From Candidatus Omnitrophota bacterium (GTDB lineage Bacteria > Omnitrophota > Gorgyraeia > Zapsychrales > JANLHA01): a stretch of DNA of 64,000 nt. The position numbers and the translations under genes were made by a program. This document shows, one piece after another, positions 55,237 through 55,398 of this stretch. Position 1 is the first letter of the stretch. The number at the start of each line of letters is the position of its first letter. Location of the stretch: contig JACKFJ010000002.1 of NCBI GenBank assembly GCA_020632535.1, positions 25,447 through 89,446 on the forward strand. Direction: 5' to 3'. Below the pieces are notes generated by a model. It saw only the letters and a list, made by a program, of their open reading frames with translations, searched no databases and was not told the DNA's origin.

Positions 55237-55251
<15 letters not shown>

Positions 55252-55398
55252 CATTGTTCTCATAAATGGAGCGTCCCGCAAAACACGCGGGAAGAACACG
55301 AGGTTGTCCCTCGTCAGCTCCACATTGTTCTCATAAATGGAGCGTCCCGCAAAACACGCGGGAAGAACACGAGGTTGTCCCTCGAAAATCCACATTAT
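55237..55398 (+). repeat. 71-bp tandem repeat (2 identical units plus a degenerate partial third), starting inside the tRNA-Ala 3' end
   Basis: Units 55237-55307 and 55308-55378 are identical by base-by-base reading. The third copy from 55379 is diverged (CCCTCGAAAATCCACATT...). Confidence 0.9.

Follow-up and report, generated by a model that had tools for sequence, protein, structure and literature searches.

The spacer between the tRNA-Ala(GGC) and tRNA-Leu(CAA) genes of an Omnitrophota metagenome-assembled genome (MAG) holds an array built on a 71-bp tandem repeat, and the question raised by this locus is whether the repeats form a tRNA-like gene in their own right, mark the scars of a mobile element, or merely reflect duplication of a tRNA end. 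A first-pass annotation of the DNA had left three readings side by side: att scars of an element that integrated into tRNA-Ala, a D-arm-less tRNA-like processing module between the two tRNAs, and simple slippage. We analysed the 64,000-nt stretch of DNA that carries the locus (hereafter the window) together with the orthologous loci of related genomes. Most likely the array is debris of a tRNA locus, of a kind already known, and no tRNA-like gene of a new sort.

The array and its neighbourhood

The best protein matches of the window genes are to Omnitrophota MAG sequence, and the tRNA locus is flanked by genes for a NifS-like cysteine desulfurase, BirA, an aminotransferase, a PMT_2 glycosyltransferase and PilN/PilO. 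The strong promoter upstream of tRNA-Ala (Table 1) probably drives tRNA-Ala, the array and tRNA-Leu as a single transcript.

Table 1. Coordinates of the promoter, the two tRNA genes and the segments of the array in the window.
Feature	Position	Strand	Description	Remarks
Sigma-70-type promoter	55137..55165	+	TTGACA-17-TATATT (with TG)	11/12 consensus positions; conserved in L082 and L084
tRNA-Ala(GGC)	55179-55251	+	CCA not encoded	ARAGORN; Rfam RF00005, 67.5 bits
O1	55226..55251	+	genuine tRNA-Ala 3′ 26 nt, CACGAG TTCGACC CTCGT CAGCTCC A	repeat seed
S1	55252..55296	+	45 nt, t + X	
t	55252-55267	+	trailer-like CATTGTTCTCATAAAT	first 16 nt of S1
X	55268-55296	+	GGAGCG + hairpin TCCCGC-AAAACAC-GCGGGA + AGAA	collinear with tRNA positions 22-47
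O2	55297..55322	+	recombinant pseudo 3′ end	O3-type T loop GTTGTCC + O1-type 3′ part TCAGCTCCA
S2	55323..55367	+	identical to S1	
O3	55368..55392	+	older degraded pseudo 3′ end, CACGAGGTTGTCCCTCG AAAATCCA, 25 nt	loop GTTGTCC
B′	55393..55414	+	residual native spacer and tRNA-Leu leader, 22 nt, CATTATAGTTATAAGAATTTAT	start resembles t; cf. L082 B′, L105 leader
tRNA-Leu(CAA)	55415-55499	+	CCA not encoded	ARAGORN; Rfam

Tandem Repeats Finder reports a period of 71 with 2.2 copies and 96% matches at 55226-55384, and direct script comparison found no difference between 55237-55307 and 55308-55378; at this lag the exact match extends over 77 nt at its longest (55237-55313 = 55308-55384). The perfect duplication described in the first-pass annotation is borne out by both, and the degraded third copy of the tRNA tail, as well as all the stems, loops and tails listed there, were likewise found in the sequence. 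Across the window, CCCTCGTCAGCTCCA is present only at 55237 and 55308, and the core GGAGCG...GAAGAA only at 55268 and 55339 (chance expectation 0). The layout can be written as O1(26)-S(45)-O2(26)-S(45)-O3(25)-B′, where O stands for the 3′-terminal 26 nt of tRNA-Ala, from the T arm through the acceptor 3′ strand to the discriminator, and S is a segment of 45 nt. All three O copies begin at C48/T-stem 5′ strand and end at the discriminator, and the hairpin of X recurs at 55274-55292 and 55345-55363.

Two further features were noticed in the window. A long GC-rich hairpin (CAACGCC GCAGCC AGTT GGCTGC GA GGCGTTG) spans 55105-55142, its 3′ arm entering the -35 box of the tRNA promoter, and it is kept in the window and in the relatives L082 (2780-2950, minus strand) and L084 (~2790-2900, minus strand), the latter with a compensatory change (GCAGCC/GGCTGC to ACAGCC/GGCTGT). 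Its arms may persist in L086, with an internal insertion and a different predicted fold. The block that holds this hairpin is repeated in tandem about three times (~63 bp) in L082 and twice in L084, and a weak Rfam mir-995 match corresponds to the same hairpin. Elsewhere, and separate from the array, a 32-bp unit repeated in tandem (2.4 copies, 95% identity; CGAGCCGCGAAGAGCGCGAGTCCTGTTTAGGA) occupies 6185-6260, in the gap between the ORFs at 4427-5725 and 6343-7476.

Composition, copy number and duplication of the unit

A covariance model of the unit, built from 8 units, matches units only at these tRNA-Ala sites, and it also aligns full length to the genuine tRNA-Ala with 38.7 bits. In this alignment GAGCG falls on the 3′ strand of the D stem together with G26, the hairpin takes the place of the anticodon arm, AGAAC takes that of the variable loop, and O covers the T arm with the 3′ strand of the acceptor stem, S plus O being collinear with tRNA positions 22-73 after 16 trailer-like nt. 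In anchored alignments, X matches positions 22-48 of the neighbouring Ala(GGC) at 17/29 (p ~0.01), and it matches canonical Ala(UGC), represented here by a verified E. coli reference sequence, at 19/29 in the window and 21/29 in L084. The two Ala(UGC) scores were reached by none of 20,000 shuffles (p < 5e-5), and p was 2e-4 to 1e-3 under a hairpin-preserving null. When 13 tRNA segments were compared in a small panel, Ala(UGC) also scored highest for X. Nothing in the unit corresponds to tRNA positions 1-21, and t resembles trailers or leaders native to relatives (L002, L105) rather than the first third of the tRNA. Homology of t to that third was considered and rejected: local alignment of all 45 nt of S with the first 47 nt of tRNA-Ala gave p = 0.04 in L084, but 0.63 in the window and 0.74 in L092.

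These alignments indicate that each unit is a trailer stub joined to a 5′-truncated tRNA-Ala pseudo-copy, and this truncation accounts for its “D-arm-less tRNA” appearance. The GGAGC that the first-pass annotation had called acceptor-like does pair with GCTCC, but by the covariance alignment it is the homologue of the tRNA D-stem 3′ strand; the pairing arises because GCTC occurs twice in tRNA-Ala, once as the 5′ strand of the D stem and once within the 3′ strand of the acceptor stem.

Orthologous loci, recognised by the same NifS-like, BirA and PMT_2 neighbours, were reached through the NifS-like neighbour by protein search and contig look-ups, the best match in a contig scan with this neighbour being only 62% identical (L002). 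The phylogeny of the relatives is a neighbour-joining tree of one protein. Two units are present in L082 and L084, whose neighbour protein is 90% and 73% identical at the amino acid level, respectively; one unit is present in L092/L093 and L100 (72/71%), and zero in L002, L086, L089, L088, L102 and L105. Three lineages hold exactly two units and none holds three, with only five unit-bearing genomes sampled. Presence and absence can lie close together, as in L088 (no unit) and L092 (one unit), where the neighbour protein is 94% identical. The empty sites are precise, since what stands behind the tRNA in relatives without a unit stands behind the last O in those that carry one: B′ of L084 matches L086/L089, and B′ of L092/L100 matches L088/L102. 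CCA opens B′ in the L084/L086/L089 group, which places the original CCA-bearing tRNA 3′ end at O3 in L084.

The tRNA-Ala locus of the relatives shows many further small tandem duplications. In L092 and L100 the pseudo-tail is interrupted by an insertion of 49 nt (TGACCGAGCGCAAATGCGCGAGGGAATGGTTGAGCCTCCGGTGAAACCA; L092 2272-2320, L100 2439-2487, minus strand) that separates CACGAG from TTCGACC, precisely at the border of the T-stem 5′ strand with the T loop. The weak likeness of this insertion to X plus the GTTGTCC-type loop of the window is suggestive of a decayed second unit but non-significant (p = 0.09). The tRNA-Ala/tRNA-Leu spacer is a tandem-duplication hotspot in the clade. In L088 this spacer (~320 nt) contains another array, of ~5 copies of a ~51-nt unit with a hairpin GCAGAGCAAGCTCTGC and a motif CGCGAAATAATTACAAATTT; ~2 copies of it are found in L092 and ~1 each in L100 and L102. 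A mirror case occurs at the tRNA-Ala 5′ end of L086 (2720-2790, minus strand), where a 40-nt insertion (TTCCCCAAGGGGACACGCCC...) is bounded by 12-nt direct repeats (TATTTTGGGGCT) that correspond to the leader and the first 6 tRNA nt. The native spacer behind tRNA-Ala in L084, L086 and L089 carries hairpins with base changes on both arms (AAATTTTTGT...ACAAAAATTT and CCCCGAAGGGG in all three, TTTAAATCC...GGATTTAAA in L086 and L089), which suggests that these spacers are structured and processed.

The duplication itself has left a visible joint. In the window O2 begins as O3 and ends as O1, and at the changeover O1 and O3 have only 6 nt (CCCTCG) in common. O2 of L082 is O1-like, so that its joint must be located elsewhere than in the window. 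Neither in the window nor in L082 do S1 and S2 differ from each other, while 3 fixed differences separate the two genomes, whose background identity is 88-90% in coding and alignable non-coding DNA. Identity within each genome and difference between them place the duplication, or homogenisation, after the split of the window and L082. By this comparison the duplications are recent and recurrent, and separate in the two lineages, in agreement with the recent origin that the first-pass annotation had offered as one explanation of the identical units.

The course of events was probably as follows. An ancestor of several related Omnitrophota lineages would have gained one segment directly behind tRNA-Ala(GGC), made of ~16 nt of trailer-like sequence and a 5′-truncated tRNA-Ala-like copy reaching from the D-stem 3′ strand through the acceptor 3′ strand. 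With this first segment in place, the 3′-terminal 26 nt of the tRNA would have stood twice in direct repeat (O1 and O3) around the 45-nt S. As at any short tandem homology, unequal crossover or replication slippage between O1 and O3 could then delete the unit (0) or duplicate it (2 units). In the window lineage, one recent exchange of misaligned O1 and O3 within CCCTCG may have turned an O1-S-O3 ancestor into O1-S-O2-S-O3; with O2 as the recombinant joint of a single recent event, the two 71-nt units would still be identical. The array would be transcribed from 55137-55165 in the tRNA-Ala/tRNA-Leu precursor and discarded at end maturation, having no dedicated function. The array would then be evolutionary debris of the tRNA locus and no gene, amplified by recent unequal exchange; this is the reading we prefer, and we regard it as reasonably probable. 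For the duplication itself, slippage or unequal exchange is the best of the three readings first proposed, given the chimeric O2 and the occurrence of 0, 1 and 2 units. The true copy number could exceed 2, because perfect repeats can collapse in assembly.

A possible selected spacer RNA and the E. coli analogue

The reading that survives next best, which we nevertheless consider unlikely, is that the units, or their hairpin GAGCG-UCCCGC-N7-GCGGGA-AGAAC, are under selection within the tRNA-Ala/tRNA-Leu precursor. In one variant, the pseudo 3′ ends direct RNase Z/RNase P type cleavage and release 55-71-nt RNAs; in the other, the hairpin is a processing or stability determinant. The minimum free energy fold of the isolated unit is indeed the three-helix fold drawn in the first-pass annotation, a stable three-way junction (-26.6 kcal/mol, z = -4.5), and the unit lies within a probable single transcript. 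Moreover, X is 26/29 identical between the window and L084, compared with ~28/41 for t and the pseudo-O copies (manual alignment count), and the S copies of L084 are identical (44/44) while its O2 and O3 differ at 4/26. The better-conserved X and the identical S copies hint at constraint on the hairpin.

Against such selection stands a fold that the relatives do not keep. In the 8-unit alignment 92.6% of cells pair under the proposed fold, but double-sided change was seen in 1 of 17 pairs, a value reached by 217 of 500 shuffles (8 units, low power). The T-like stem of L084 has T:T mismatches, the hairpin of L100 has a C:A mismatch, the 49-nt insertion splits the arm in L092/L100, and the window itself has a non-canonical T loop, GTTGTCC in both O2 and O3. 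Close relatives do without the unit (L088 compared with L092; L086), conservation between the window and L082 is only at background level, and no Rfam family matched, rtT included.

As for a tRNA identity, Rfam cmscan (E <= 10) gave no tRNA-clan match in 55252-55414, and ARAGORN in default, relaxed (-ps) and metazoan-mitochondrial (-mt and -mtd) modes called only the two real tRNAs and nothing in that interval. The 5′ acceptor strand, the D arm, U33 (the hairpin loop is AAAACAC) and a TTCRANY-type T loop are all missing from the unit. The D-arm-less processing module proposed in the first-pass annotation finds no support in tRNA calls or covariation, its T-like arm being decayed in L084 and split in L092/L100. 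Compared with known D-arm-less tRNAs and tRNA-like RNase P and RNase Z substrates, the isolated unit does fold an outer stem, an anticodon-like arm, a T-like arm and a discriminator A, but it escapes both the mitochondrial armless modes of ARAGORN and Rfam, and it differs in its loops, in covariation and in the conservation of its fold among relatives.

Other functions were considered for the array and rejected. A small basic peptide, as in E. coli Tpr, could be imagined because ORFs cross the array, but the ATG at 55266/55337 is absent from L084 and L092: the ATG of ATGGAGCG is replaced by GTAGAGCG in L084, followed by an in-frame TAA, and by GTGCGGCG in L092. No T run follows the hairpin on either strand, as an intrinsic terminator would have, and the sole match, a weak one on the minus strand over the pseudo T arm, is within chance expectation. 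A regulator-binding palindrome used elsewhere was not found either, TCCCGC-N4-12-GCGGGA occurring only in the two units of the window.

The closest analogue of the array, in architecture only, is the 178-bp repeat of E. coli tyrT/tyrV (rtT RNA/rttR, tpr). For rtT being the product of a repeat unit, PMC3318445 refers to Bosl and Kersten 1991. In E. coli K-12 (NC_000913.3) we find 3.1 copies of the 178-bp unit after tyrV, with 95% identity, each unit closed by the 19 nt from the 3′ end of tRNA-Tyr (AATCCTTCCCCCACCACCA). In both organisms a tandem array starts from the tRNA 3′ end and every unit ends in a copy of the tRNA tail, the array is transcribed with the tRNA (in the window, presumably so), and copy-number change by unequal exchange is expected. 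In E. coli the repeated tail also coincides with the annotated end of a processed small RNA: the 3′ end of rttR (L103 position 767) falls exactly on the CCA of the first tRNA-Tyr tail copy, and such copies can thus mark RNA ends, which favours a selected spacer RNA. The two arrays differ in that the window array has no sequence or Rfam RtT similarity to the E. coli repeat (cmscan, E <= 10), has a unit of 71 nt and not 178 nt, stands between two tRNA genes instead of at the end of an operon, and consists of units recognisable as truncated tRNA copies with no conserved small ORF. That RNase P/Z-type cleavage at the pseudo-tRNA ends frees a stable small RNA as a counterpart of rtT, with a functional hairpin derived from the anticodon arm and the number of copies (0/1/2) tuning its dose, is an idea to which we give little credence.

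Possible integration scars, assembly and implications

Integration commonly leaves partial tRNA genes behind (PMC9897764). Direct repeats of a t(m)RNA 3′ end in tandem (PMC3146451) and att-flanked remnants known as CIMEs (PMC5704250) are on record as well. As in these cases (PMC9897764, PMC5704250, PMC3146451), a tRNA copy confined to the 3′ part, from the T arm on, stands as a direct repeat beside the intact gene, and the array also shares the tandem repeats, the empty sites in relatives and a distally displaced original 3′ end, CCA-bearing in one clade. The first unit could derive from site-specific integration into the T arm with later deletion of the cargo, or it could derive from a decayed adjacent tRNA-Ala paralogue or a partial duplicate. 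The att-scar reading of the first-pass annotation is plausible to this extent, since a Campbell-like layout, the T-arm start of the repeats and the displaced CCA end fit integration with a deleted interior, and precise empty sites of the form B-O-B′ were found (L086/L089 compared with L084; L088/L102 compared with L092/L100). An integrase or cargo between the repeats, or an attP on a mobile element, was on the other hand not found: the repeats enclose only 45 nt in all five unit-bearing genomes, the unit core had no match in IMG/VR viral contigs, phages and plasmids, and the tRNA-Ala tail is absent from viral contigs. The core also had no match in JGI metagenome contigs; this collection evidently lacks even L092/L093, and the negatives from these collections are weak. 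An integrase island in L084/L104 speaks for integration but adjoins tRNA-Leu and not tRNA-Ala, and the many other small tandem duplications of this locus in relatives also count against integration as the origin of the first unit.

It is quite improbable, in our estimate, that site-specific recombination also produced the second unit, both units then being minimal att-flanked, CIME-like remnants stacked in trans by a tRNA-Ala-specific tyrosine integrase, with site-specific and not homologous recombination behind the duplication. The start of the repeats at the T stem, a classical integrase sublocation, the B-O-[S-O]n-B′ layout with its precise empty sites, and the documented tandem t(m)RNA-end repeats and CIMEs all speak for it, as does an island that carries an integrase, an HTH_17 (Xis-like) protein and a repressor-like protein and adjoins the neighbouring tRNA-Leu in L084/L104. 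That island, however, lies at tRNA-Leu and not at tRNA-Ala, and a search of the 64-kb window with the L104 integrase gave no homologue, the best match having E = 1.8. In addition, no integrase or cargo is found between any O copies in the five genomes, the unit has no copy in viral contigs, phages or plasmids, and 71 bp is too small for an excisable circle. The T loops of O1 and O3 differ (TTCGACC and GTTGTCC), so that the T-loop overlap region would be non-identical. A non-identical overlap region normally blocks exchange by tyrosine recombinases. Homologous unequal exchange explains the second unit better than a second integration does.

The tRNA-Leu island of L084 corresponds to L084 620-2361 = L104 1-9361, lies directly 3′ of tRNA-Leu(CAA) in this 73% relative, and encodes a tyrosine integrase (361 aa), the HTH_17 (Xis-like) protein, an HTH_3 repressor-like protein, a 1629-aa Methyltransf_28 protein and a resolvase, replacing the PMT_2 neighbour of the other genomes. 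A search for its far end found no second tRNA-Leu tail within 10 kb.

That the second unit was made by mis-assembly of a one-unit locus is highly improbable: although the MAG was assembled from short reads, to whose length the perfect repeat (142 bp) comes near, and a Logan contig of the same sample breaks within tRNA-Ala, traversal of a de Bruijn graph cannot have created the hybrid joint of O2 (GTTGTCCCTCGTCAGCTCCACATTGTTC), where O1 and O3 have no more than 6 nt in common, far below any assembly k-mer, and two units are also present in the independent assemblies of L082 and L084, the latter anchored by three distinct O copies.

With the array read as debris of the tRNA locus amplified by unequal exchange, it offers a clean example of how a tRNA 3′ end seeds a short direct repeat that flips between 0, 1 and 2 copies among relatives, with the recombinant joint still visible. 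It also carries a warning, in that such units fold convincingly and mimic armless tRNAs, yet are truncated pseudo-copies, and in that they can break or collapse short-read assemblies at tRNA loci. If the reading as a functional small RNA were true instead, the poorly understood rtT phenomenon of E. coli would be extended to an uncultured phylum.
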